A stretch of 15,255 nt of DNA from an uncultured bacterium. Lineage in GTDB: Bacteria; Chloroflexota; UBA5177; JANWHV01. Shown in pieces: positions 68 to 14,575 of the stretch (the first letter of the stretch is position 1; every line of letters starts with the position of its first letter). The notes beneath the pieces were generated by a model. That model had not been told where the DNA came from. It saw nothing but the letters and a program-made list of their open reading frames with translations, and did no database searches. The DNA lies in contig CAWHAE010000013.1 of assembly GCA_963827235.1 (NCBI GenBank), positions 1 through 15,255 of the forward strand, in the 5' to 3' direction. The position numbers were made by a program, and so were the translations under genes.

Positions 68-106
68 ATGACCAGACTGTGGCGTCCTCCAAGTACGGAG
101 GACGGC

Positions 107-1592
107 ATGAAGAAAGACGCTGAGGTGTGGATCTTGGAGAAGGAACGGAGCAAAGGAGCCACGCAGGTCGTGGCGGCGGCGCGGGCCGGGATGAGTGAGC
201 GCACCGCGCGCAAGTACGAGCAGGTCGGCAAGCTGCCCAGTCAACTCAAGCGGCCACGGCAGCATCGAACACGGCCCGATCCGTTTGCCAGCGAGTGGAG
301 TTGGGTCGTTGCGGAGTTGCAGCGTGATCCGGCCCTGCAAGCGGTGACGCTCTTTGGGCTCCTGCAGGCCAAGCACCCAGGCCGCTACCAGGAGGGCCAG
401 CTGCGCACCCTGCAGCGGCACATGGCCACCTGGCGCGCGGTGGCCGGACCGGAGCGGGAGGTGATGTTCGCGCAGGTGCATCGGCCCGGCGATCTCGCCG
501 AGTCCGATTTCACCCACATGAGCAGCCTGCAGGTGACGCTGGGCGGCCTGCCCTTTCCGCACGAGGTGTTCCACCTGGTGCTCACCTACTCGAACGTGGA
601 GGCGGCGCACATCTGTGTCAGCGAGAGCTTCGAGTCCCTGGCCGAAGGGCTCGAGTACTGCCTGTGGCAACTCGGCGGCGTGCCCCAGCGGCACAAGACA
701 GACCACATGGGCACGGCGGTGCGGCCATTGAGCGTGGCCGGCCAGGCGGAGTTCACCGATCGCTACCGGGCCTTGCTGGCGCACTACGGTATGGAAGCGG
801 CGGTCAACAACGCCGGCGAAGCGCACGAAAACGGCGACGTGGAACAGGCGCACCACCGGCTCAAACTGGCCGTCGACCAGGCGTTGCGCGTGCGTGGCAG
901 TCGCGACTTTGTCGACCGCGTCAGCTATGTCCGCTTCCTGGCGGAGATCGTGCGCCAACGCAATCTGACCCGGGAAGCACGCTGGCAGGCCGAGCGGGCG
1001 CTGCTGCGGCCCTTGCCCACGACACCGCTGGCCCCGTGCCGTGAGCTGCGCTGCACGGTCACCCACTACAGCACCATCCACATGCTGGAGAACACGTATT
1101 CCGTGCCCTCCCGCTTGATCGGCACGAAGGTGCTGGTGCGCCTGCATGCCGAGACCGTGGACGTCTACGTGGGCACCAGCCTGGTCTGCCAGATGCCGCG
1201 GCTCTTCGGCCGGCAGCAGCACGCCATCGACTACCGGCACGTCATCTGGTCCCTGGTGCGCAAGCCCGGTGCGTTTGCCGCCTATCGCTACCAGCACGAC
1301 CTCTTCCCCAGGCTGAGCTTCCGTCAGGCCTACGACCGGCTGCAGCAGGCACGGCCACGCCAGGCCGACCGCGAGTACCTGCGACTGCTCTCCTTGGCGG
1401 CCAGCACCGCGGAAAGCGAGGTCGACATCGCTCTGGACTTGCTGCTGGAGGCGCAGACCTTGCCGACCTTTGAGGCGGTACGGGAACTGGTGCGGGGGCC
1501 GCGGCCGGTTGCCGTGCCGGCCGTGAGCACGCCTAGCCTGAGATCTGACGCGCTATGACCAGTTGCTCCCCTCGAGGTGCCGCCATGCCTAA
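107..1592 (+). CDS. istA: IS21-family DDE transposase IstA, with a +1 frameshift near the C-terminus (as read, stops at 1558)
   Basis: GGAGGA RBS at 97-102 before ATG 107. N-terminal HTH (AAARAGMSERTARKY), DDE residues in ESDFT / KTDHMG / HENGDVE, and NTYSVPSRLIG. Deleting one base near 1541 gives the typical ending LDLTRYDQLL...RHA* (TAA 1590-1592), which overlaps the istB ATG. Confidence 0.93.
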
Positions 1593-2205
1593 CGTCCTGC
1601 CCACCATGGTCAATCGGCAAGAGCAGCTCCACCGCATGCTGCGCAGCCTCACGCTCACCCGCACGGCAGCCACCTTTGGCGACCAGGCCCTGCGCGCCGC
1701 GAAGGAGAACTTGACCCACGAAGCCTTCCTCTACGAGTTGGTCAGCCAGGAGTGTGAGCACCGCGCCCAGCAACGGGCCGTGCGCCGGCTGCGCCAGTCC
1801 GGACTGCCCCGGGAGAAGACGTTTACTACCCTCGACCTGGAGCACTTCAGCCCGGCGTTGCGGTTGGCGATCGAGCGGCTGCGCACCGGCGCCTTCCTGG
1901 AGGAGGCGATTAACGTCGTGGCGGTAGGCCGGCCGGGGGCAGGTAAGAGCCATGTCGCGGCCGCCATTGCCCACGATCTCATCGCCCACGAGTATCCCGT
2001 GCTCTGGCTGCCCACGGCCACCTTGGTGCAGCGGCTGCTGGCCGCCAAGCGGGACCTGCGCTTGCCCCAGGAACTGGCCCGTCTGGACCGCTTCCCCTGC
2101 CTCGTCCTCGATGACATCGGCTACGTCCAGCACGACCGTGATGAGATGGAAGTGTTCTTCACCCTGCTGGCCGACCGGTACGAGCGCCGCAGCCTGATGA
2201 TATAA
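1585..2205 (+). pseudogene. istB: IstB AAA+ ATPase, N-terminal part, truncated by the inserted element
   Basis: GAGG at 1574-1577 and ATG 1585. Walker A GRPGAGKSH, Walker B LVLDDIGY. Ends YERRSLMI*, with the TAA supplied by the inserted element exactly where ITSN is expected. Confidence 0.93.
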
Positions 2206-2297
2206 GTTACGTGGAATATGGGGATTGGCCGGGGGTGCGGCGGAGCGAGTGGCAGTAGAGTAGGCATGACAGGGTGGCACTGAGAGGCGGGGGCAGG

Positions 2298-3362
2298 ATG
2301 ACAGAGGTACGCTGGGACCGCTATCCGCTTGTCGCAGGCTATCCGGCCACACGCAGTTGGCTCTCCATCCAGGGTGCGGTTGGCCTTGCGCCGAATACCG
2401 TCGATGCGTATGGACGTGCGCTGCACGATTATCTCCGCTATTGCCGGGACCACGACATCGCTGCGGACACCGCCACGCGCGAGCATGTGGTGGGCTATGT
2501 GGGCGAGCTGGTTCAACGTCCCCATCCGCACGGAACAAACGTGGTGGCCTTCGACTCGGGCGCGGGACTCGCCAATGCCACACTGCAACAGCGTCTGGTG
2601 GCGCTTCGGCTCTTCTATGACTATCTGGTGGAAGAGGGACAGCGAGACGTGAATCCCGTGGGACGAGGGCGTTACACCGCCGGCAGGGGTTTTGGTGGTC
2701 AACGCGCACGAGGCTTGGTGCCCCGTTTTACCAAGCTGCCCTGGATTCCGAGTGACGAGCAGTGGCAGGCCATCATCGCCGCCATGCGGGAGGAATCCGT
2801 GCGCAATCGCCTGATGTTTGCGCTCGGGTATGATGCTGCCTTGCGGCGCGAAGAGTTGTGCGCGCTGTGCACGGAGGACCTGGATCCGGCCTATCGGACC
2901 GTGCGCGTGCGGGCCGAGACCACCAAGAACCGTCGGGAGCGCATCGTCCCGTACTCGGCCGTGACGGGGGAGCTGCTGCGTGCCTACCTTGCGCATCGCC
3001 GCACGCTCAGCCTAGCGCGAGGACCGCTCTTTCTGTCCGAATCCCGACGCAATTATGCGGCTCCCCTCTCGCTGTGGACCTGGTCGAAAGTGGTGCACGC
3101 GTTGGCGCTGCGTGCGAGCGTGCCCCAATTCTCTACCCACACCTTGCGCCATTTGTGCTTGACCGACCTGGCGCGAGCAGGCTGGGAGCTGCATGCGATC
3201 GCCACGTTCGCGGGCCACCGGAATCCAGCCACGACCCTGCAATACATCCACCTCTCGGGACGCGAGTTAGCGGAAAAACTGGCGCGGGGCATGGAACAGA
3301 TCCATGCCTGGCGTGTGCGCACGCTGACCGAGGCCGCTCAGGCCGTGGAGCCGGTCCGATGA
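2298..3362 (+). CDS. Tyrosine recombinase/integrase A (~354 aa, TnpA/XerD-like)
   Basis: N-terminal SAM-like region (LAPNTVDAYGRAL). Catalytic set R (LRREE), K (TTKN), HxxR (HTLRH), H (AGH), Y (LQYIH). Purine-rich RBS before ATG 2298. Confidence 0.93.
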   Translation: MTEVRWDRYPLVAGYPATRSWLSIQGAVGLAPNTVDAYGRALHDYLRYCRDHDIAADTATREHVVGYVGELVQRPHPHGTNVVAFDSGAGLANATLQQRLVALRLFYDYLVEEGQRDVNPVGRGRYTAGRGFGGQRARGLVPRFTKLPWIPSDEQWQAIIAAMREESVRNRLMFALGYDAALRREELCALCTEDLDPAYRTVRVRAETTKNRRERIVPYSAVTGELLRAYLAHRRTLSLARGPLFLSESRRNYAAPLSLWTWSKVVHALALRASVPQFSTHTLRHLCLTDLARAGWELHAIATFAGHRNPATTLQYIHLSGRELAEKLARGMEQIHAWRVRTLTEAAQAVEPVR

Positions 3363-5632
3363 GCCGATCCACGGCACCGGCCGCCATCACCTCCCTGGCG
3401 CTGGGTGAAGCGCTTCCCTGGACCTGGCCACTCACCCGTACGGTCTACGATCGCACGCCAACCCTCTCGGGCACGGAAGTGGACGTGCTGGTGGCCTTGG
3501 GTGACGACGTGCGCTGCTGGCGTGACGAGACCAGGCGATTTGTGCCGTTGCTCCGTCTCCTGCAGCCCTTGGTCGATGCGCGTGCTGCCCTTGAGGCTCA
3601 AACAAAGCATGGTCGGCATGCGGCGGATTCGGCGGTCGCGACGTTGTTGCATCACTGCCGCCGCACAGGATGCAGCTATTGGGGCTGGACGCCGGTGCAG
3701 TGGGTCGAGGTACTTGGCACGGATCAGGTGCGCTTTGTCGCTGCACACCCAGGCTGGGTCGACCGGTCGACGCGGTCCTACTTGATTGGGCTGGCCTATC
3801 TCTTGGGCTGCTTTGCCGATTTCGATGCGCTGGGCGGGTTCAAGCGGATTGCCGTGGCGGAGAAGGTCTTCGGGCAGGAGCGGGTGCGCACAGCGCTGCG
3901 CGCCATCGACACGGTGCTCTGTGGCTGGGGCTATAGCCCTGGACAGCCCGGGCGAGGACTGCCGGGCCTACTGGGCGAGTTGTTCCTGCGCAATGCCAGC
4001 CCGCAGCTTGCCGATCTCTCGCTCTCGTTGCTCGCGGCACAGCGCGCCGCGCCGGCCATCACGGCGGAAGATCATGCCCTGCTCTACCAGCTGCACCGAG
4101 GGCTCGCAGCCATGAACCTGCTGCCCTTTCCGTCGGCGCAGGGCGGCGTGTCCCCACCGGTGCAGGGCGTGGCGCCTGCCTGGTCCAGCTGGGTGACCCG
4201 CTGGGAGCGCACCTCCACCCTGGCCAGGGCGACGCGCCAGCAGGTGCGCACGTGCCTGCTCAAAATCGGACGCTGGCTCGCAGCCACCCGGCCAGATATT
4301 GAGGATCCCGCGGCTTGGACCCGCGATCTCTGCGCCGCGTACGTGGCCGCGGTCTCGGCCATGCAGATTGGCGACCACACCCAACGCACCACCGGTCTTG
4401 CCGGGCGGCTCGGGCAGCCCCTCTCTGCTCGTTCGCGCGTCGCGTACCTGGGCGCAGCACGCCAGTTCTTCCGCGATTGCCAGGAATGGGAGTGGATCCC
4501 ACGACGGTTTGATCCGGCGCGCGCCCTGGCGACGCCGCGCAGTATCAAGGCGCTCATCGGTCCCAACCCCCGGGTGATCGCCGACGACGTGTGGGCCAAG
4601 TTGCTGTGGGCAGGCATGAATATCGATGAAGCGGATCTCCCAATCGGTCGCACCGGTGGCCATCCGTATCCGGTCACACTGGTGCAGGCGCTGACGCTCA
4701 CCTGGCTCTTTAGCGGCCTGCGCAGTGATGAGATTGCTCGGCTACGCGTCGGGTGCGTGCGCTGGCAACGGGAGGACGTGCCGGTGCCAGCGCAGGACGG
4801 CGCCATCCTGGAGCAGGACGATGTCTGCCTGCTGGACATCCCGGTCCACAAAACGGGCACCGCGTTCACCAAGCCGGTTGACCCTGTCCTTGGTCAGGCC
4901 ATCACCGCCTGGGAACACGTGCGCCCGGACCAGCCGCCGCTGCTTGACCCACGCACCGGGGAACGCGTCCACTTTCTCTTCTGCTTTCGCGCCAAGCGCG
5001 TGGCCAAGCAATACCTGAACCAGACGATCATTCCGACGTTGTGTCGCAAGGCAGGCGTGCCGGTCGCCGATGCGCGCGGTCGCATCACCAGTCATCGGGC
5101 GCGTTCGACCATCGCCAGCCAACTCTACAATGCCAAGGAGCCCATGACCCTGTTCGAGTTGCAGGAGTGGCTTGGCCATCGGTCTCCCGCGAGCACCCAG
5201 CACTATGCCCGTATCACGCCAACGACCCTGGCCAAGGCCTACGCGGACGCGGGGTATTTCGCACGCAATGTGCGGACCATCGAAGTCTTGATCGATCGTG
5301 ATGCCGTGCAAAGCGGTGCCGCCACCGCCGGCGTGCCCTGGCAGTACTTTGATCTCGGCCCTGCCTACTGTACCTACAGCTTCTTCGACCAATGCCCCCA
5401 CCGCATGGCCTGTGTCCGCTGTGACTTCTGCGTGCCGAAAGACTCGAGCAAGGCGCACTTGCTGGAAGCCAAAGAGAATCTGCAGCATATGCTCGCCAGC
5501 ATTCCGCTCACGGACGATGAACGGGCCGCCGTGGAGGAGGGCGCCGATGCACTCGAGCGACTTGTGGCCCGACTGGCCGATGTGCCGGCACCGCGGTTGA
5601 CTGCTGCACCCCTCCCTCGGGCTCCGGTCTAG
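3359..5632 (+). CDS. Large tyrosine recombinase B (~757 aa, TnpB-like) with a C-terminal Cys cluster
   Basis: ATG 3359 overlaps the upstream stop (ATGA coupling). Catalytic set GLRSDE, VHKT, SHRAR, LGH, QHYA. Ends with YCTYSFFDQCPHRMACVRCDFC and a helical tail. Confidence 0.9.
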   Translation: MSRSTAPAAITSLALGEALPWTWPLTRTVYDRTPTLSGTEVDVLVALGDDVRCWRDETRRFVPLLRLLQPLVDARAALEAQTKHGRHAADSAVATLLHHCRRTGCSYWGWTPVQWVEVLGTDQVRFVAAHPGWVDRSTRSYLIGLAYLLGCFADFDALGGFKRIAVAEKVFGQERVRTALRAIDTVLCGWGYSPGQPGRGLPGLLGELFLRNASPQLADLSLSLLAAQRAAPAITAEDHALLYQLHRGLAAMNLLPFPSAQGGVSPPVQGVAPAWSSWVTRWERTSTLARATRQQVRTCLLKIGRWLAATRPDIEDPAAWTRDLCAAYVAAVSAMQIGDHTQRTTGLAGRLGQPLSARSRVAYLGAARQFFRDCQEWEWIPRRFDPARALATPRSIKALIGPNPRVIADDVWAKLLWAGMNIDEADLPIGRTGGHPYPVTLVQALTLTWLFSGLRSDEIARLRVGCVRWQREDVPVPAQDGAILEQDDVCLLDIPVHKTGTAFTKPVDPVLGQAITAWEHVRPDQPPLLDPRTGERVHFLFCFRAKRVAKQYLNQTIIPTLCRKAGVPVADARGRITSHRARSTIASQLYNAKEPMTLFELQEWLGHRSPASTQHYARITPTTLAKAYADAGYFARNVRTIEVLIDRDAVQSGAATAGVPWQYFDLGPAYCTYSFFDQCPHRMACVRCDFCVPKDSSKAHLLEAKENLQHMLASIPLTDDERAAVEEGADALERLVARLADVPAPRLTAAPLPRAPV

Positions 5633-5780
5633 TGGGCACTGGGCGATCCGATGCACTGCCACCGGCTATGCGCGTCAGTTCTGGGGCTACGCACGAAACG
5701 TGCTGCAGCGTCCCTGCGCACGCGCGCTGGAGAGCATGGCACCAGTCCCGAAAAACGATTGAACCTGTGTCTGGGGGTAT

Positions 5781-5857
5781 CCGGTGCGCCTTGGACAGAC
5801 GCGCTTGGACTTCCAGCCTACGGCGACACCCTCACCCGCGTCTGTCCAAGCGCCCGG
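5781..5857. repeat. Long inverted repeat/stem-loop in the element's 3' non-coding tail
   Basis: CTTGGACAGACGCG (5790-5803) and CGCGTCTGTCCAAG (5837-5850) are a perfect 14-bp inverted repeat with a 33-nt loop. Pairing extends with bulges to CCGG at 5781 and 5857. Confidence 0.8.
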
Positions 5858-6115
5858 CAGGCGATCTCCGCCGGCGGACCGACGAACACTGCTGGCGACT
5901 GGTCCAGTTGCGCGATTGGACGTCGTTTCACGGAGAACTGCTGGCCCGCGCGACTGGCCAGTTGCTCACCCCCTTCCTGTCACGTTGTCTATCCGCATCA
6001 ACGGCCAAATCTCCATGAGGCACCATGGACGAGGCAGCAGGGATGCACCGTTCGGCGACGGCGCCGCCCCGATACCTCTGCCGATAGCACCCGTTACGGT
6101 CATGTGACCAGGTAC

Positions 6116-6143
6116 TTGACACCCAGGGCTAATTCCACATAAT
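6116..6143 (+). promoter_or_regulatory. Putative outward-facing sigma70-type promoter in the element's right end
   Basis: TTGACA (6116-6121), 16-nt spacer, CATAAT (6138-6143). Confidence 0.55.
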
Positions 6144-6624
6144 CACCTCGAACAAGAGCCTGACCGACTGGGGCGCGATTGTCCAGGACGTCTCCTTGGC
6201 CGCCGCCCTGGTCGACCGCCTGATGGACGGCGGCCAGGTCTTCTATCTCAAAGGCCCGTCCTGGCGCACCAAGGACCTGCCCGACCCGCGCGCGGGAGCC
6301 CGGAGGGCACCCCACATGCGTAACGTGACGCATCAGCCGCAGGAAGTCAGCATGCCCCAACCCCGCCAACACGCTGAAAGCCGCCAAGCAACGCACCTAC
6401 CGCACACGCCAGACAAAAGGGAATGCCGCGGTCGTGCTGGCCACAGCCCGGCGCCGCGTGTGCACGTTGAGGCTAGCCAGGATGCAGCCACATGCACGAG
6501 CGAGCGGTGCGGATTGTCCCCCGAGCAGGCCCGTCGCCTCTGCGGTCACAATCTGACGCCGGACGAGTGGTGGCAGCACCTGGGGGCCAAACCTCTATCA
6601 CCAAACGTGCCCGGACTTGGCTAG
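6142..6624 (+). pseudogene. istB: IstB C-terminal part with an atypical ~110-codon extension
   Basis: ITSNKSLTDWGAIVQDVSLAAALVDRLMDGGQVFYLKGPSWR matches the IstB C-terminal pattern (TSN...W...D...A..DRL.HH......G.S[YW]R). The HH is replaced by DG. Confidence 0.85.
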
Positions 6625-8391: not shown

Positions 8392-9396
8392 TCAGTCACC
8401 ACGGCCGAAGTGCACCATATAGGCGTAGAGGCAGGCGAAGGAGCGGTGCGGCGCGAAGTGGGCGACGGAACTCTGGATTTCTGCCGCGGATAGTTTCTCA
8501 GGGTGCTCGACTTCCGGCGCCACGATCGGCCGCACCGCAGGATCGTCGAGGAAGATGTCGCCGTGCATAAGGCCTCGCAGTGCGACGTAGCCCGCGATCC
8601 AGGGACCGACGCCGTGGAGGTCGTCGAGCACTTGCACTGCCTCCGCTCCGGGAAGTCCGCGCAACCGCTCCCAGTCGTACACGTCCGCGTGCATCGTGAA
8701 TGCTCTGCCTATGGCCGGAAGATAGGAAGCCTTCTGCCGGCTGAACTGCAGCTTCAGCAGGTCGCCGGGCTCCAGCGCGGCGACCTGCTCGGCCGTTGGA
8801 TAGATCGCCAACTCGCGCTCGCCAATCTGCAGCGTCCGGCCGTATGTCCGAGCGAGCGATTCCTCGAGGCGCCTGGCCAGGGGAGTGTAGATGCGGCTGC
8901 TGATGATGGTGGAAAGCAAACAGGACCAGGGGTCGGCCAGTCCCGGCACGCGCATCGGCCAGCACCGCTTGACCAAATAGGCCCCCACGGGATGCTTCTC
9001 CAGAGTAACTCGTACCGCCTGTAGGTCCGTATCGAGTGCGAAGCGGCGGCCGACCAGCGCAGCAGCCCGGGCAAGCTCGTGCTCACCCGGTGGCGGCGTG
9101 CCATTGCACGATCGCAGCGTGAGTCTGAACGCCGGTGAGCCGTCCTCTGCGCGGTCCGGCTCGAGGCACATGAGCGACGCCGCACCGTCCAGCAGCACGG
9201 CTCGCTCCAGTCGATCGTTCTTCGGGGCGAGATGATCGAAGACGTCCGTTGCGCCGGTTTCTTTCAGCAGCCGGAGCGCTTCGAATGGATCGAAGGGCGA
9301 TCCGGGTACGAGGAGCGCGCTCGCCGACCGCGGCTCGTCGGCGTCACGCTGGATAATACGTAGCGGCGACGGCAGGTCCGGCATTCCGTCGTTCAC
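8392..9396 (-). CDS. alkA: DNA-3-methyladenine glycosylase II / HhH-GPD family (AlkA-like)
   Basis: GAGGAGGTG RBS before GTG 9396. DPWSCLLSTIIS, YPTAEQVA, FSRQKASYL, HhH motif LHGVGPWIAGYVALRG, DDPAVR, and C-terminal APHRSFACLY. Confidence 0.85.
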   Translation of the reverse strand: MNDGMPDLPSPLRIIQRDADEPRSASALLVPGSPFDPFEALRLLKETGATDVFDHLAPKNDRLERAVLLDGAASLMCLEPDRAEDGSPAFRLTLRSCNGTPPPGEHELARAAALVGRRFALDTDLQAVRVTLEKHPVGAYLVKRCWPMRVPGLADPWSCLLSTIISSRIYTPLARRLEESLARTYGRTLQIGERELAIYPTAEQVAALEPGDLLKLQFSRQKASYLPAIGRAFTMHADVYDWERLRGLPGAEAVQVLDDLHGVGPWIAGYVALRGLMHGDIFLDDPAVRPIVAPEVEHPEKLSAAEIQSSVAHFAPHRSFACLYAYMVHFGRGD

Positions 9397-9941
9397 GACA
9401 CTTCACCTCCTCTTGGCACCAGGAAGCGGCGACCCCGCCGGAAGCCCCCACCGGCCACAGCCACGGTCAGGCTCGCAACGGATCAGTCGGCGCCGAGCAT
9501 TGGCCGGCAGTGCCTGCCACGGCTCCAATGTATCCGGTTAGCGCGGGTCGCCGATTCGCGCGGCGCCGCGAGCAGGACAGCCGGTAGGAGCTGCCGGCAG
9601 CGAACAAGGTCCGGCGGCTCGCCCGAGCGACCACGGTCCAAGTCACCCGTCCAGAGTGTTGAAAAGGTCCACGGCCGAGCCTGCTTGATCCCTACGCGGA
9701 CGAGCTCCTCTCTCGCGGGGCTGTTATGGGAGAACACAAGAGAGGGGGAGAAAAAGGGTGTAGAATACAAGAGAGCACTCCCCCCTCCTCGTCGTGTCGT
9801 TGACACGGCGCCCACCCAACAAAACATATAACACGGCGACCATGACTGGCGACTATGGTGAATGCGGAGGCGAGTGACCACCCGGTTGGCGCCGCCGGAT
9901 GCTGGGACACTGCCTGACCGACGTTACTGGAGGGATTCGTC

Positions 9942-10586
9942 ATGACACATCTGCACACCCTGACTCGTTTCCTGGCCGTGGCTGGTTTGAGCGCTGTAAT
10001 GCTGACTGTACTGGCCGGGCCCGCAGCCAGCCAAGCAGCGCCCATTTATGTCCGGGCGCAGTCCTTTACCGTCGTCTCAGTATCCGCTTCGACGCCCAAC
10101 ACGCTGATCGTGCAGCGGAGCGTCACCAGCCCGGAGATCACCGTCGTCCTGAGCCCGACGGCGACGATCGTGCGCCGATTTGACGGCAAGTCGAATCTCA
10201 GCGAGATCAGCGCTGGCGACCATATCGTGGTCACCCCGGTCGCTCCGCCACTGCCGACCGCGGGGCCGGTCACGGCGACGGCGGCGATGAGCATAACCGC
10301 TGCAGCCGTCAAAGATGACAGCATCCAGGTCGGCTATTCCCAGATCAACGGCCGTGTCATCTTCGTGAATCAAGCGCTCACTCAGCTCCAGCTGATCGTG
10401 ACCGCCAACGAGGGCCGGTTCGCCGCCATCCCGGTTGGTGATCATGCTTTCATCGACGTCACGCCCACCACGCCTGCGGCCCTGATCGGCAAGCCAAGCG
10501 CCACGCCTGCCGATGTGCGGTCCACAGCACCTGAACGTCGGCTCCTTCGGGCGAGTACTTGGCCGCATTATCCAGGAGGTTCGTGA
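9942..10586 (+). CDS. Secreted hypothetical protein with repeated beta-rich (DUF5666-like) domains, probably 3'-truncated near 10520
   Basis: GGAGG RBS. Signal peptide MTHLHTLTRFLAVAGLSAVMLTVLAGPAASQA. Domain pattern ITVVLSPTATIVRRFDGKSNLSEISAGDHIVV...ITAAAVKDDSIQ. The second repeat breaks off after ATPADVR. Confidence 0.65.
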   Translation: MTHLHTLTRFLAVAGLSAVMLTVLAGPAASQAAPIYVRAQSFTVVSVSASTPNTLIVQRSVTSPEITVVLSPTATIVRRFDGKSNLSEISAGDHIVVTPVAPPLPTAGPVTATAAMSITAAAVKDDSIQVGYSQINGRVIFVNQALTQLQLIVTANEGRFAAIPVGDHAFIDVTPTTPAALIGKPSATPADVRSTAPERRLLRASTWPHYPGGS

Positions 10587-11475
10587 GTACCTGCTCTAGC
10601 CGCGATGCGCTCGCCAGCGCACACAAACCATCCGAACCGTGCGTATGCACCACCTGGCCGCGATAGCTGTCCGACACCATGCGTGCGGCGCGGTGCACGA
10701 CGGCAGCCACGACAACCCGCTCTGACTCGGATCTGACTTCTGTTCGCTGCAGCCGGCTTATCTGCAAGAGGTCCTCGACGAGCTTGGATTGCCGGTTGGC
10801 AGCCCGTACGATCGCGGCGACGTGCCGCCGTCGCCGCTCGTCGTCGAGCTCGTCCCACCGCCCATCGAGCAACTCGGCATAGCCCACGATGGCCGTCAGG
10901 GGCGTCCGCAGCTCGTGGCTCACGGACGAGACGAAGTCTTCGCGCAGCGCCGCGAGGTGCTCGGCCGCACTGGCTCGCTGCGCTCCCCAGGCCAGCGTCT
11001 CGCTGATCAGCACACACAGGGGTGCGACGTACACGATCGAGCTGGCGGTGACAGGCGACCAGTGGCCGGTCGCCACCAAGGGCAAGAGATAGGCAGGCAC
11101 GAAGAGTGGCAGGATGCGCAGCGACGCGCCACGGGGTTGCGTGATACCTGTCCAGCCGAAGACCAGGATGAAATAGATGGAGTAGCGATAAGGATCGCCA
11201 CCTTCGAAGCTGTTGTGCAGAGCGATCAAGATGAACGCCGGCACGACGGCAGCCAACGACAGCCAGCGAGGCCAGCGGTGCCATAGCGCGAGTATCACGC
11301 CCGTGAGCAGCGCCCCCACGCCGACAACCGCGACGGCCGCGTTGTTCGCTCCGCTCGGTGCCGGCAGGAGCGTGCTACCGAGCGTCGCGGTACCGCCGCA
11401 GACGTAGAGCAGCAATGCCAGCCTGACCGTCTCGGCCGACGAGAGGAGCCACTCTGCCTCGCCCCGCCGCGCCAT
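10459..11475 (-). pseudogene. Membrane sensor histidine kinase truncated within the HATPase domain (start uncertain)
   Basis: About five hydrophobic segments, H-box FVSSVSHELRTPLTAIVGY, N-box RLEQVLTNLLDNAAKYS. No G1/F/G2 boxes; similarity ends near 10520. Confidence 0.85.
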
Positions 11476-11874
11476 CCGCCTGCTCAGGCGTCTCTCGCTC
11501 GCCGGCAAGGGCAGGGACGGACCAGAACGCGGGCCGAGCAGGCTTTGCATGCCTCGACGCATGGCGTTACCAGGTCCCTGCCACACCGGCATGCGCCGTG
11601 CCTCGCGGCTCTCGGCCCGTCCATTTCGCGCCGGGAGAATCGGCAGGAGTCGATAGCGATCCATGCTCACCTGTACGTGCCTCGCGCCTTCGCGACGCCT
11701 CGCGCGCCATACCACCGGGTGTTCGTGCTGCCGGGCCAGGGCCTGCCAGAACTGAGTGTAGTGCATGCGAGCCTGGCTACTATAGGAAATCCGAGATGGC
11801 AGGGGGACTACTCGCCGCGTCTCTCGTGACGCGCCGATGAGTCGAGTGGTCCAGCCTTAGCGAGACCGCAGGCG

Positions 11875-12723
11875 TCACAGGCCGCGGTGACTCTGCCGGG
11901 CAGCGGTACGATCCACGAGCACCCGGCCCATCATAGTTGTCGGGATGGGCAACTCGAGCAAAGACAGCACCGTCGGTGCGACATCCAGTGAGGTCGCCTC
12001 CGGACCCGGGATCGCAGTGAGATCGCGCCCGAGCGCGTAGAAGCAGACCTCGCGCAGCTCAGGCGCGTCCAACCGTGTCCGCGGTGCCCATCCATACCGT
12101 GGTCAGCGGTCAGCAGCATCACTGTCGCAGGACTACGCCGCCACACATCCGCCACGAAGGAGTCCAGCAGCGGATCGAGCGCATGCACGCAGTCGTCGTA
12201 CGCGGGCGCATCGGCTCCCCAGTAGTCTCCAGCGAAATCGGTCGCCATGGGGTGCACGAGCAGCAGTTCGGGTGCCCACTGCTCCCAGAGGCGCCTAGCG
12301 TACGCGATCACCACCGCGTCCGGCTCGCCGTCGCGCTCGTAGAAGAACGCATGCTGAATGCCGCGCGGATGGTGCTCGACATGAGTGTCACGCATGGAAT
12401 CGAATGGCGTGTCGTTGAACAGCTCCGACCACCAGGAGTAGGCGCTGGCAGCAGTACACAGGCCGGCGCCGCGAGCAATGGACCAGATGCTGGGCAGCGT
12501 TGCGACGCTCCGATCTTCGTTGTCCCGCGTACCGTTGTGCGGCGACGGGACCCCGGTGCTGATCGTGTTGTAGCTAGGGCGAGAGACGGTCGGCATGAGC
12601 GTCGTCATCGGCAGGTAGACGCCGAGGCCCTCGGCCATCAGGTGGCGAGGTGTGTCCAGCAACTGTATGGCTCGGTCACGTCGCAGACCGTCGACAACTA
12701 TCAGTATCTACGGGGCGTCGCAT
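11875..12723 (-). pseudogene. Alkaline phosphatase / nucleotide pyrophosphatase-phosphodiesterase family protein with two frameshifts
   Basis: ATG 12723, then ILIVVDGLR after a shift near 12708. PTVSRPSYNTISTG, LLVHPMATDFAGD, LLTADHG. After a shift near 12072 it continues LREVCF...LDVAPTVLSLLELPIPTTMMGRVL. Confidence 0.8.
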
Positions 12724-13005
12724 GCACATCCGCCTCTCGAGAGCCGTGACTGCCGCCACGGTGGAGGCAGTGACTGCTCGCGACTCGTACAGGTACGATA
12801 CAGCGCGCCTTCGCGTCCGGCGAGTGCGGCACGCTCCGGTAGGTGGGGCACTACAGCCTCAGGGCCGATAATCGAATCCGGGTTCGTGCCGGTTGCGGGG
12901 CGTTGGCTTCTCACCATGAATGCCTCCGCTGTGGCTTCTCTGCGTCCGTGTCGCTCGATCCCTGCGATGCACTGAACTCGCTGGAGTGCGCTGCTCCCGG
13001 TTCTC

Positions 13006-13727
13006 TCTCCTCGCAGCCGGGCCGGCTTGGACGTCGTCTCCCCCTCGGGTGTGACCAGCACCGCATTGCCAAAGGCCAGGTCCGCTGGGTCCATTGGCGG
13101 ACCCGCGAAGTAGATACCGCGCACCCGATCCGTCTCGCACTGTCGGTTCTCCGGATCGCCCAACGGATTGCTCAGCAGATTCCCGAAACTGTCGCAGCCG
13201 GCGTAGCCGGCCGGGTTCAGGAGTGTACCGACCGCTATGGCGGCGACCGGAACAGGTCCGGGATTGGCCAGACGCCAGCGGAACACGATGCAGGGCAAGC
13301 CGGAGTCCTCCGCGTCGAGTGGGACAAGCGGCGCGTACGTGAGCAAGTCGACCTCCAGAGGCACTCCGGAATCCCGCAGCTGCACCTCGGCGACCGGATA
13401 ACGCCCGCGAAAGCGGCATCCGGCAAAGCGCGGCAAACCACCCTGATTGTTGGGGTGAATTCCATGTGAGGCACTGTGCGGAGGAGGTACGCGACCTTCC
13501 AGCACGCGCGTTACGCACCAGGCCCTCTGCCTTCGCCCAGAGGGCAAAGAACGAGTAGGGCAGCGCCAAGCCCTTCCTCGGCACGTTCCAGATCTCGAAG
13601 TCTCGCAGGTCCCCGCGTGCTCCGAGAGAATGGTGCCTGTTCCAATACCCCCGAGCGGGAAAGCGACTTCAGTTGCCTCCGAACTTAGCCACGGCGCCGC
13701 TTCCCGTGATTCTGTCACGCTCTTCAT
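13006..13727 (-). pseudogene. GH116 (non-lysosomal glucosylceramidase-like) N-terminal fragment, frameshifted and truncated
   Basis: ATG 13727. AFPLGGIGTGTI, (shift ~13629) SLGARGDLRDFEIWN...FFALW, (shift ~13520) TRVLEG...GLPRF...FRGRYPVA...PLVPLDAEDSGLP. Similarity stops at KPARLRG; the catalytic C-terminal domain is absent. Confidence 0.8.
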
Positions 13728-13883
13728 AACTCCGTCGCCCCTTTTCGGTATTCGGACGCAGCGCAGTCGTCCTGGAAAGCCCACGCGTTCGCTCCGAGCC
13801 CCGCCTGCCAGGGAAGATGTTGGGCGATGCTGCATGCACCGGCTGGACACAGTCAGCTGCGATAGCACGCGCCTTCCTCCAGC

Positions 13884-14575
13884 ATGGCCACGTAGTTCTG
13901 GATTGGGAATGGCCGGCACCCCTGGGTCCGGCTCCATGAAGCCGGCGGAGACAAAGCGCCTGCAGCCGATCGGCTGCTGATGGACGTCCGTCAGCAACTC
14001 AAAGCAACCCGACTGCACGGTCATGTTCCCGCTGCGACCGGTGCGAGCGGTGCCGGCTGGGATCTGCTCCAAACATTGCCATTGCCCAACGGAGTCCGGG
14101 GACCGAGACTCCGGCCCGAGTATCTCGCGCAGGAGTTCGCGGTGCGCGCTGCAAGAGTCCTGGAGCGCCAACAGGAACGAGGGGAGCGAGTCGACTTTTC
14201 CGCGGCGGACTGGGCAGTCATCGGCACCATGCTGCAGCGCTACCCATGGCTGTACGCGTCCATCTGGCGCGAGCCATGCGCGAGGGCAGCCCCAGGATCG
14301 AAGAGCGCCACCGCGACCACGTCGCCGACTACATCGGCCGGACCGTCGTCAAACGGTTAGGGCCGCGCAACAACGTGACGGCCCTGCGGACGCCAAGCAC
14401 GAGCAGACGATTTCTCAGCGCACTAATGGCGATGGAAGCAGGAAAAGGCGTTCAGATGACCGAGCAGGATGTTCCGTGGTGGCAGCGCGAGCTCAACGCG
14501 CGCTTCGCGCGCCGAGCCGCACGCCGAGCTTGGCGCTATGCAGAATACTTATCCGGACTGTCACAGGTTTGGTAG
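13884..14575 (+). pseudogene. Broken hypothetical protein, possibly the cytoplasmic N-terminus of the downstream surface protein
   Basis: Protein-like stretches in two frames (…ADRLLMDVRQQLK…WLYASIW / AMREGSPRIEERHRDHVADYIG…RELNARFARRAARRAWR) can be joined by one base near 14265. ATG 13884 is followed by an in-frame TAG at 13893. No family recognised. Confidence 0.3.

Follow-up and report, generated by a model that had tools for sequence, protein, structure and literature searches.

The stretch of DNA described here (the window) is the whole of contig CAWHAE010000013.1, 15,255 base pairs (bp) from the 8-Mb genome of an uncultured member of the Chloroflexota. It begins with an insertion sequence (IS) of the IS21 type, which is the host, or target, of a second mobile element lodged inside its istB gene. 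This second element occupies positions 2201-6142 (3,942 bp) and carries two genes for tyrosine recombinases. Our reading, to which we give a probability of about 0.8, is that it is a two-tyrosine-recombinase transposon with conserved arms at its ends and a fixed spacer of its own, which moves by recombination at the core formed when those ends are joined.

The istA gene of the host IS (68-1558, plus strand) contains the Pfam domains rve and Mu-transpos_C_2. It is followed by the 5' part of istB (1555-2200, plus strand), whose translation, ending ...SLM(I), matches positions 3-190 of the Pfam IstB_IS21 profile up to residue 216 (...SLMI), near base 2200. The 3' part of the gene lies to the right of the element (6143-6276, plus strand) and matches profile positions 191-234 from its first residue, with the profile being picked up at position 191 by TSNKSLTDWG at base 6145. 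Because the profile continues from 190 to 191 across the insertion, we conclude that the insertion is clean, with no loss and no duplication. The istB frame remains open as far as 6621 (6145-6621), running some 115 codons past the Pfam match; the normal stop may have been lost, or an unusual tail may be present.

The left flank ends ...CTGATGA and the right flank begins TCACCTCGAAC. In the window copy, the boundary is ambiguous by 2 nucleotides (nt), the letters A/T at 2200-2201 and at 6142-6143 being the same. Relatives that are free of this ambiguity, such as the insertions in IS5-class genes, set the ends at TANNAG...GAA, which corresponds to 2201-6142 in the window. Five repeat-collapsed isolate contigs (L022, L059, L065, L079, and L093) start no more than one base from TANNAG and stop no more than one base from ...GAA, and therefore mark the same boundaries independently.

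The first gene of the element (2298-3362, plus strand) encodes a small Xer-like, or TnpA-like, tyrosine recombinase of 354 amino acids (aa) with the Pfam domains Phage_int_SAM_1 and Phage_integrase (PF00589, residues 154-320); an alternative GTG start is found at 2274. The second gene (3362-5632, plus strand) encodes a large TnpB-like tyrosine recombinase of 756 aa, with PF00589 at residues 444-619. Both open reading frames (ORFs), here called tnpA and tnpB, are intact and co-oriented, and they overlap at 3362.

In the large recombinase, a helical extension of some 270 aa at the N terminus precedes the core-binding domain (approximately residues 272-392), the catalytic domain, and a conserved Cys/His cluster. 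When the family is compared, R454, K497, H578, R581, and H606 are invariant and Y615 is nearly so; we take these residues to have the catalytic roles usual for tyrosine recombinases. The cluster that follows the catalytic tyrosine (C670, C678, H680, C684, and C687) is also invariant or nearly so and may be a zinc-binding module, in a region where the confidence of the structural model is low. This AlphaFold (AF2) model was built from 20 sequences and has a mean predicted local distance difference test (pLDDT) score of 68, with high values in the N-terminal 340 residues (about 90 in the helical first 270) and low values in the catalytic part. It places an Xer/Cre-like catalytic domain after the core-binding domain. 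In the model, residues 272-392 align with the integrase N-terminal domain 3nrw (VIA-align Z 12.4; root-mean-square deviation 2.1 Å over 99 residues), and the comparison with XerD gives a VIA-align Z of 10.7. Both recombinases match XerD, XerA, XerH, and Cre in fold; for the large one, the Foldseek and VIA-align matches span mainly residues 272-640 and barely sample the N-terminal part.

Between tnpB and the right end of the element lies a tail (5633-6131, plus strand) with some 430 extra bp that hold no conserved ORF by profile, tblastn, and ORF-clustering comparisons. The last 75 bp or so of this 510-bp tail match the short tails of relatives (aligned with L171 and L180), and the motif TTGACA is found in it at 6116-6121. 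The tail ORFs have no Pfam or NCBIfam match and the tail has no Rfam match; for the ORF at 5632-6018, no tblastn homologue is present in 92 loci including the window, and the tail ORFs of the window do not cluster with those of long-type relatives. A conserved third (TnpC-like) gene was not found in the tail by Pfam, NCBIfam, tblastn, or ORF clustering, searches that did not include a direct comparison with a TnpC sequence.

Arms, spacer, and the proposed joined core

Relatives of the large recombinase are numerous (at least 2,953 among 8,000 scored candidates), and stretches confirmed to encode one amount to 585 in genome contigs and 590 in metagenome contigs. Our comparison covers 163 loci. 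Besides the window itself and 3 loci of related genomes, these are 79 genome loci and 80 metagenome loci, the last two groups (159 loci) being taken from the confirmed stretches. The 79 genome loci are mostly from Actinomycetota, with an identity in the large recombinase of 53-70%. Relatives of the large recombinase with 33-50% identity were also found on 616 plasmids, including those of Klebsiella (167), Escherichia (89), Citrobacter, Pantoea, and Enterobacter; plasmids of Rhodococcus and Streptomyces gave matches as well. Further relatives have identities of 97% (P0001) and 67-76% (P0002-P0006). One metagenome contig contains a close relative of the left end of the element, with 15 differences over 228 nt, and at base 2200 passes into another left flank; the lineage of the element therefore has copies at other sites.

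An arm pattern search places the left, or tnpA-proximal, 11-bp arm at 2207-2217 (TTACGTGGAAT, plus strand) and the right 11-bp arm at 6132-6142 (ATTCCACATAA, plus strand). The two are inverted and are complementary at 10 of 11 positions. The pattern TTAYGTGGAAT, with one mismatch allowed, has exactly two matches in the 15,255 bp of the window, one at each end of the element and in inverted orientation, where 0.11 would be expected by chance; two matches were reached in 1 of 200 shuffles.

Across the family, the left arm is present with at most one mismatch in 109 of the 109 loci that include the left region, and in 99 of these testable loci it is exactly TTACGTGGAAT. The right arm has the form ATTCCACA[G/T]AA, again with at most one mismatch, in 137 of the 146 loci with at least 120 nt after tnpB. 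This conservation persists at a protein identity of only 46-70%, and the arms are nearly identical in hosts of different phyla. Since the arms are conserved across the family, we regard them as real cis sites. There are two loci where the arms depart from this pattern. On a Klebsiella plasmid (L181), the left arm has diverged to TTATTTGGAAT and the hexamer is TATATG; a clear right arm was not seen at this locus. In L041, two left arms stand 376 bp apart upstream of a single tnpA-tnpB pair, which may represent a nested or tandem partial copy.

A preliminary description of the window, made from its letters, had joined 6132-6143 to 2202-2217 and read an 11-6-11 core from the product, that is, two inverted 11-bp arms around a 6-bp spacer. 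We confirmed these sequences at their coordinates. The further proposal that the ends are cis sites which, once joined, form a core of the tyrosine recombinase type is borne out by the conservation of both arms and spacer in the family, at the counts given above for the left and right arms. A lack of arm conservation among homologous elements, which that description had named as a refutation, is contradicted by the same counts. The same description had seen a second, degenerate copy of the arm at 2216-2230, resembling the right end read inward. That comparison yields 12 matches, 2 mismatches, and 1 gap (score 8), and two unrelated sites in the window score equally when both strands are searched. 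What relatives have at the equivalent place, 5-11 nt inward of the left arm, is no more than a weak C-n-G-n-GGG patch in another register.

The 6-bp spacer of the window element is TATAAG (2201-2206, plus strand), the family form being TANNAG, and is the proposed crossover region of the joined ends. In 108 left junctions it is always found at that junction, outside the tnpA-proximal arm. All 108 left hexamers are TANNAG-like and all end in AG; 104 start with T. They comprise 13 closely similar forms, with TATCAG (33), TATTAG (26), TATAAG (16), and TAAAAG (12) being the most common, followed by TGTCAG (5), TAGAAG, TTACAG, and TTAAAG (3 each), TACAAG and GATCAG (2 each), and TCTAAG, GCCTAG, and CATCAG (1 each). 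The hexamers of the right flanks are diverse: T[AGT]NNAG is fitted by none of the 119 unique flanks, and no left hexamer resembles a target hexamer. The left hexamer follows the recombinase tree, and hence the lineage of the element, rather than the flank.

An example is found in genome G061, where six 100%-identical mini-copies of 118 bp, each with both arms, occur at four different transposase-gene sites (L188:1381-1498, minus strand; also L193-L198). All have TATCAG at the left, and their right flanks start TTTTCG, TCGCGA, TCGCCA, and TGTTCG. The constant hexamer, its agreement with lineage, and these mini-copies lead us to conclude that the spacer belongs to the element. We are highly confident that it is fixed, and equally so that arms and spacer together make up the recombination site. 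Of the two origins that had been suggested for TATAAG, an invariant spacer and a coupling sequence brought from a previous target, the first is thus upheld, and the check then suggested, to compare the spacer among recent copies, returned the identical TATCAG of the six mini-copies. The interior of the mini-element holds an inverted, junction-like copy, made up of the left arm with one extra base, 6 nt, and the right arm; each end could therefore fold into a hairpin when single-stranded.

Target sites and target genes

The target possesses a 6-bp central region of its own, TCACCT, which lies whole at the right junction (6143-6148, plus strand) and is defined by the window sequence and by an offset between insertions of opposite orientation. 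In six target classes, the insertion points of the two orientations are exactly 6 bp apart, and the junction, when oriented by the element, is always at the 5' edge of the target 6 bp. The copies that establish this are, for gene orientation and reverse, respectively, 8 and 3 in Tn3 tnpA, 5 and 4 in IS5/DUF4096, 1 and 8 in ISL3, 2 and 2 in IS256, 4 and 1 in IstB (the reverse case being the left flank of L149), and 1 and 3 in IS3 (mini-copies). From this offset, a mark of staggered cuts 6 bp apart such as tyrosine recombinases are expected to make, we infer a 6-bp crossover region in the target as well.

As had been pointed out in the preliminary description, TCACCT and TATAAG have only the first T in common. 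Of 114 unique right flanks, 83 have T at +1 and 68 have G at +2, with no other strong common letters. The spacer, too, starts with T, and the commoner orientation in a target class tends to place a T at +1, though T at this position is not obligatory. Integration with no duplication and with essentially no homology to the target, which had been proposed for the window, is supported by both the intact IstB profile at 190/191 and the finding that T at +1 is the sole frequent match; the flanks of relatives likewise show no duplication.

To classify the targets, the one or two open frames abutting each junction were selected (longest, highest third-position GC content), and the resulting 323 frames from 134 loci were scanned with Pfam. 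In 87 of the 134 loci, the junction falls in the transposase or recombinase gene of a mobile element, at a fixed position of the Pfam profile. The largest class is IS3-type HTH_21/rve (25 loci, rve 26/27), followed by ISL3 (19 loci, at about 220 or at 16/17), the Tn3 transposase DDE_Tnp_Tn3 (15 loci, 284/286), and IS5/DUF4096 (11 loci, about 53-55). Tyrosine recombinase genes account for 5 loci; IstB for 4 (the window, L009, L149, and L180; 190/191); IS256 for 3 (355/356); rve plus Mu-C for 2; IS630 for 2 (41/42); and DDE_Tnp_1_4 for 1. Among the other 47 loci, 3 have other Pfam domains, 2 have a helix-turn-helix (HTH) domain only, and 42 are without a match.

The target classes cluster on the TnpB tree, with 46 changes as against a mean of 70.6 after shuffling and none of 200 shuffles as low; the tree was made by a quick method, and the branch leading to the window is long. 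L180, another IstB insertion, is grouped with the window there at a support of 97, and near-identical copies occur in IS3 and IS630 genes. According to the translations of the flanks, targets in the IS3/IS630 clade encode the strand ending at the first catalytic Asp of DDE enzymes (e.g., L/ATVID, the slash being the junction), and the target in the window encodes the I/TSN motif of IstB. We conclude that the targets are short stretches of DNA encoding conserved transposase motifs of other mobile elements, and that the target class is inherited with the recombinase lineage.

Some insertions have unusual flanks. In L042 and L047, one and the same right flank, which is not Tn3, is combined with opposite halves of a Tn3 transposase gene at the left. 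The element in L149 has a C-terminal half of IstB on either side, the two halves being inverted relative to each other. Each case has the appearance of a rearrangement (inversion or fusion) between copies of the element.

The window also contains, at 8392-14171, ordinary genes for an AlkA-like glycosylase, a histidine kinase, a phosphodiesterase/sulfatase-like protein, and a GH116-N protein. Neither a tRNA nor an Rfam family or a resistance gene was seen in the window.

Proposed route of integration and competing explanations

In the route that we propose, the element would be excised as a circle in which right arm, spacer, and left arm form the 11-6-11 core. The partner of this core in recombination would be a target whose own central 6 bp are unlike those of the element except for the preferred T as first base. 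Only the junction at the 5' edge of these 6 bp, as read on the top strand of the element, would ever be inherited; the spacer would thus stay with the element at its left end and the target hexamer would survive whole at the right, leaving neither a duplication nor a coupling sequence. The simplest way to achieve this would be the exchange of one defined strand, completed by replication. One-strand exchange followed by replication has been proposed for integron cassettes, CTX phage, and the strand-biased circularizing elements (SEs) (partly after PMC10214605, cited in part).

A classical two-step exchange over 6 unrelated bp would leave a heteroduplex and, after replication, two types of product. 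The 108 left and 119 right junctions are all of a single type. We put the chances that replication completes the second strand at about even.

Several observations weigh against this reading and should be kept in mind. Neither a second copy of the element nor a second copy of the IS21 was found in the genome of the window, which therefore offers no isogenic empty site; for this reason, the boundaries rest on the reading frame, the continuity of the Pfam profile, and the relatives. No circle (end-to-end) joint and no deletion joint was found over 2100-6250 in the contigs of four metagenome runs, contigs being a form of data from which rare forms are dropped, and an empty donor site was not seen for the window element. 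The exchange of the top strand is deduced from one fact, the absence of the reciprocal product type. The last two bases of the spacer, AG, are invariant and could be part of the arm, in which case the 6-bp extent of the crossover region of the element would be uncertain. The right end was not found in 9 of 146 loci. As for the targets, the choice of flank frames by length and GC content is heuristic, and 42 of 134 loci have no Pfam match in flanks of which many are short. Complementarity between the element ends (terminal 130 and 140 nt) and the 60-nt target is likewise at background, the mean best ungapped match being 7.88 as against 7.79 for swapped targets over 78 loci.

Targeting by a guide RNA or by homology was rejected on these last scores. 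Metagenome contigs show relatives of istB that are uninterrupted across the insertion site. In G061, other copies of the targeted ISs are also occupied, and the uninterrupted one is an IS of only 72% identity.

A further point against our reading comes from the position of a promoter-like motif, and leads to the first of three other explanations. In 79 of 137 copies, TTGACN stands at a distance of exactly 17 nt from the right end; in the window, TTGACA is 21 nt from the end. In the circle, the joined ends could thus form a promoter upstream of tnpA, with TTGACA as the -35 box and TANNAG as the -10 box, and the hexamer might be conserved on this account; we hold this as a tentative possibility, and one that is compatible with a crossover role for the spacer. 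Taken further, it would make the arms ordinary terminal inverted repeats whose strands are joined at one point, with the hexamer serving, for example, as the -10 box of a circularisation promoter. The single type of product would suit this explanation as well as the 17-nt spacing does. The 6-bp offset in six target classes, however, is a signature of staggered cleavage, and both proteins belong to the tyrosine recombinases, with domains for core binding and catalysis that are Xer/Cre-like. In addition, the final G, invariant here, is a poor letter for the -10 box of sigma-70-type promoters, the spacing in the window is 21 and not 17 nt, and a promoter role would not preclude crossover within the same bases. 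We therefore consider plain inverted repeats unlikely.

The second explanation is that TATAAG was picked up at a previous site, either as the coupling sequence of Tn916/CTnDOT-type transposition or in the flank-carrying manner of Tn554 and the SEs. The gene content does resemble that of Tn554 (PMC3414803, cited in part), the circles of Tn554-type elements and SEs carry a 6-7-bp spacer derived from the flank (PMC10214605, PMC12486829, both cited in part), and the hexamer in the window is unrelated to its target, as this explanation predicts. A coupling sequence should nevertheless vary with the sites visited, whereas the left hexamers are few, similar, and uniformly AG-ending next to diverse targets of which none is spacer-like; they follow the lineage of the element and not the flank; and TATCAG has been kept by six identical mini-copies in four targets. 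The suggestion of a Tn916- or Tn554-style coupling sequence is thus contradicted, an origin of the spacer in the flank is highly improbable, and Tn916/CTnDOT-type elements, with their variable flank-derived coupling sequences, were set aside as a classification.

The third explanation would have the joined ends act as a dif-like site for the Xer recombinases of the host, as in integrative mobile elements exploiting Xer (IMEX); in spite of the 11-6-11 geometry, of inner arm bases that we take to resemble those of dif sites, and of a small recombinase whose best NCBIfam matches are the XerC, XerA, and XerD models, it can be dismissed as the least credible of the three, since the element has two recombinases of its own, resides in istB and its relatives in transposase genes rather than at the chromosomal dif, keeps nearly identical arms across phyla whereas host dif sites differ between phyla, and scores about 100 bits against the Xer models, for which the cut-offs are 220-335 (about 330 for XerC and XerD). 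For the same reasons (own recombinases, location in istB, and low Xer scores), the element was rejected as an IMEX or other client of Xer/dif. The term "dif-like" in the preliminary description is accordingly apt for the geometry of the site and for nothing else.

Returning to the transposon with a fixed spacer, one might extend the reading to the family as a whole. It would then be a widespread two-recombinase family that parasitises other mobile elements, its lineages homing to transposase motifs and inactivating the genes by a heterology-tolerant one-strand exchange in which the element keeps its own spacer. The motifs would include the first catalytic-Asp strand of IS3, IS481, ISL3, and IS630, the I/TSN motif of IstB, Tn3 TnpA, IS5, IS256, and other tyrosine recombinases. 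For the choice of target, the family would depend on the N-terminal extension or the Cys/His cluster of the large recombinase instead of on homology or an RNA guide. This wider proposal seems to us evenly balanced. With their consistent homing to transposase genes, the elements would be natural antagonists of insertion sequences. Because the target class switches between close relatives (IS3 and IS630), the specificity may be re-targetable, which would be of interest for genome engineering provided that its determinant is found.

Comparison with known systems

With Xer/dif and Cre/lox, the window element has in common the recombinase fold and inverted arms of about 11-13 bp around a crossover region of 6-8 bp. 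Systems of the Xer/dif and Cre/lox type need identical crossover regions in both partners. Here, unlike in those systems, the partner shares at most the first T, and the chromosomal dif is not used. The family can be seen as a natural model for recombination between cores with unrelated crossover regions, with the 118-bp mini-element being a ready substrate.

The recombinase-in-trio (RIT) elements also are small transposon-like units composed only of tyrosine recombinases and bounded by terminal inverted repeats (PMC10214605, in part). They possess, however, three recombinases of 315-410 aa and inverted repeats of 34 bp, whereas the window element has two recombinases, one of them of 756 aa, and arms of 11 bp (about 15 bp in typical members). 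Because only two recombinase genes are present, assignment as a RIT (ritA, ritB, ritC) was rejected. The SEs have four core genes (intA, tfp, intB, and srap) as well as cargo, and are reported only in Gammaproteobacteria in the portions of PMC10214605 used here. The same portions describe a 6-bp crossover region, a strand-biased outcome, and one SE in an IS3 gene, all of which recall the present family. Unlike the SEs, whose 6-bp footprint moves from flank to flank, the window family keeps its own spacer and has two genes; on these two grounds the element was not classed as an SE.

Tn554-type tyrosine recombinase transposons are poorly understood, and the Tn554 route is stated to be unresolved in PMC10214605 (in part). 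Like the Tn554/Tn553-type elements of staphylococci and enterococci, the window element has two tyrosine recombinases, one of which is large, produces no target duplication, and is site-selective (PMC10214605, PMC12486829, in part). These sources also place a spacer of 6-7 bp between the joined ends in the circle. It is in the origin of this spacer that the two differ, theirs being taken from the donor flank and changing with each hop (same sources, in part), ours being fixed and held at the left end. In addition, Tn554 needs TnpC; the profile, tblastn, and ORF-clustering searches of the window tail found no conserved third gene. Since the spacer does not travel, strict membership of the Tn554 type is excluded.

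The closest relatives in gene content are the actinobacterial Tn554-related transposons of Van Houdt et al. (2012, Mob DNA 3:6, PMC3414803, cited in part), in which a recombinase of about 350 aa is paired with a co-oriented, abnormally long one (611-828 aa) whose catalytic domain is C-terminal. The class includes a subtype without TnpC, and its hosts include plasmids and chromosomes of Rhodococcus, Streptomyces, and Mycobacterium. In the portions of the paper used here, the class is defined by gene content, the ends and targets are not described, and the homology of the actinobacterial pairs to Tn554 is claimed as "data not shown".

The adjacent, co-oriented recombinases of 354 and 756 aa in the window fit this class, as do homologous pairs on actinobacterial plasmids and chromosomes, and by gene content the window element is a member of it. 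Unlike most members, its host belongs to another phylum. In the literature searched, where most subscription journals and the classic Tn554 papers were uncovered, we found nothing published on the arms or the fixed spacer, on the offset of 6 bp between orientations, on the mini-element, or on homing to transposase genes, so an earlier description is possible. For the large actinobacterial branch, where the gene pair was what had been defined before, the present comparison adds the cis sites, the geometry of crossover in both partners, and the distinction between a fixed spacer and the travelling spacer of Tn554 and the SEs.

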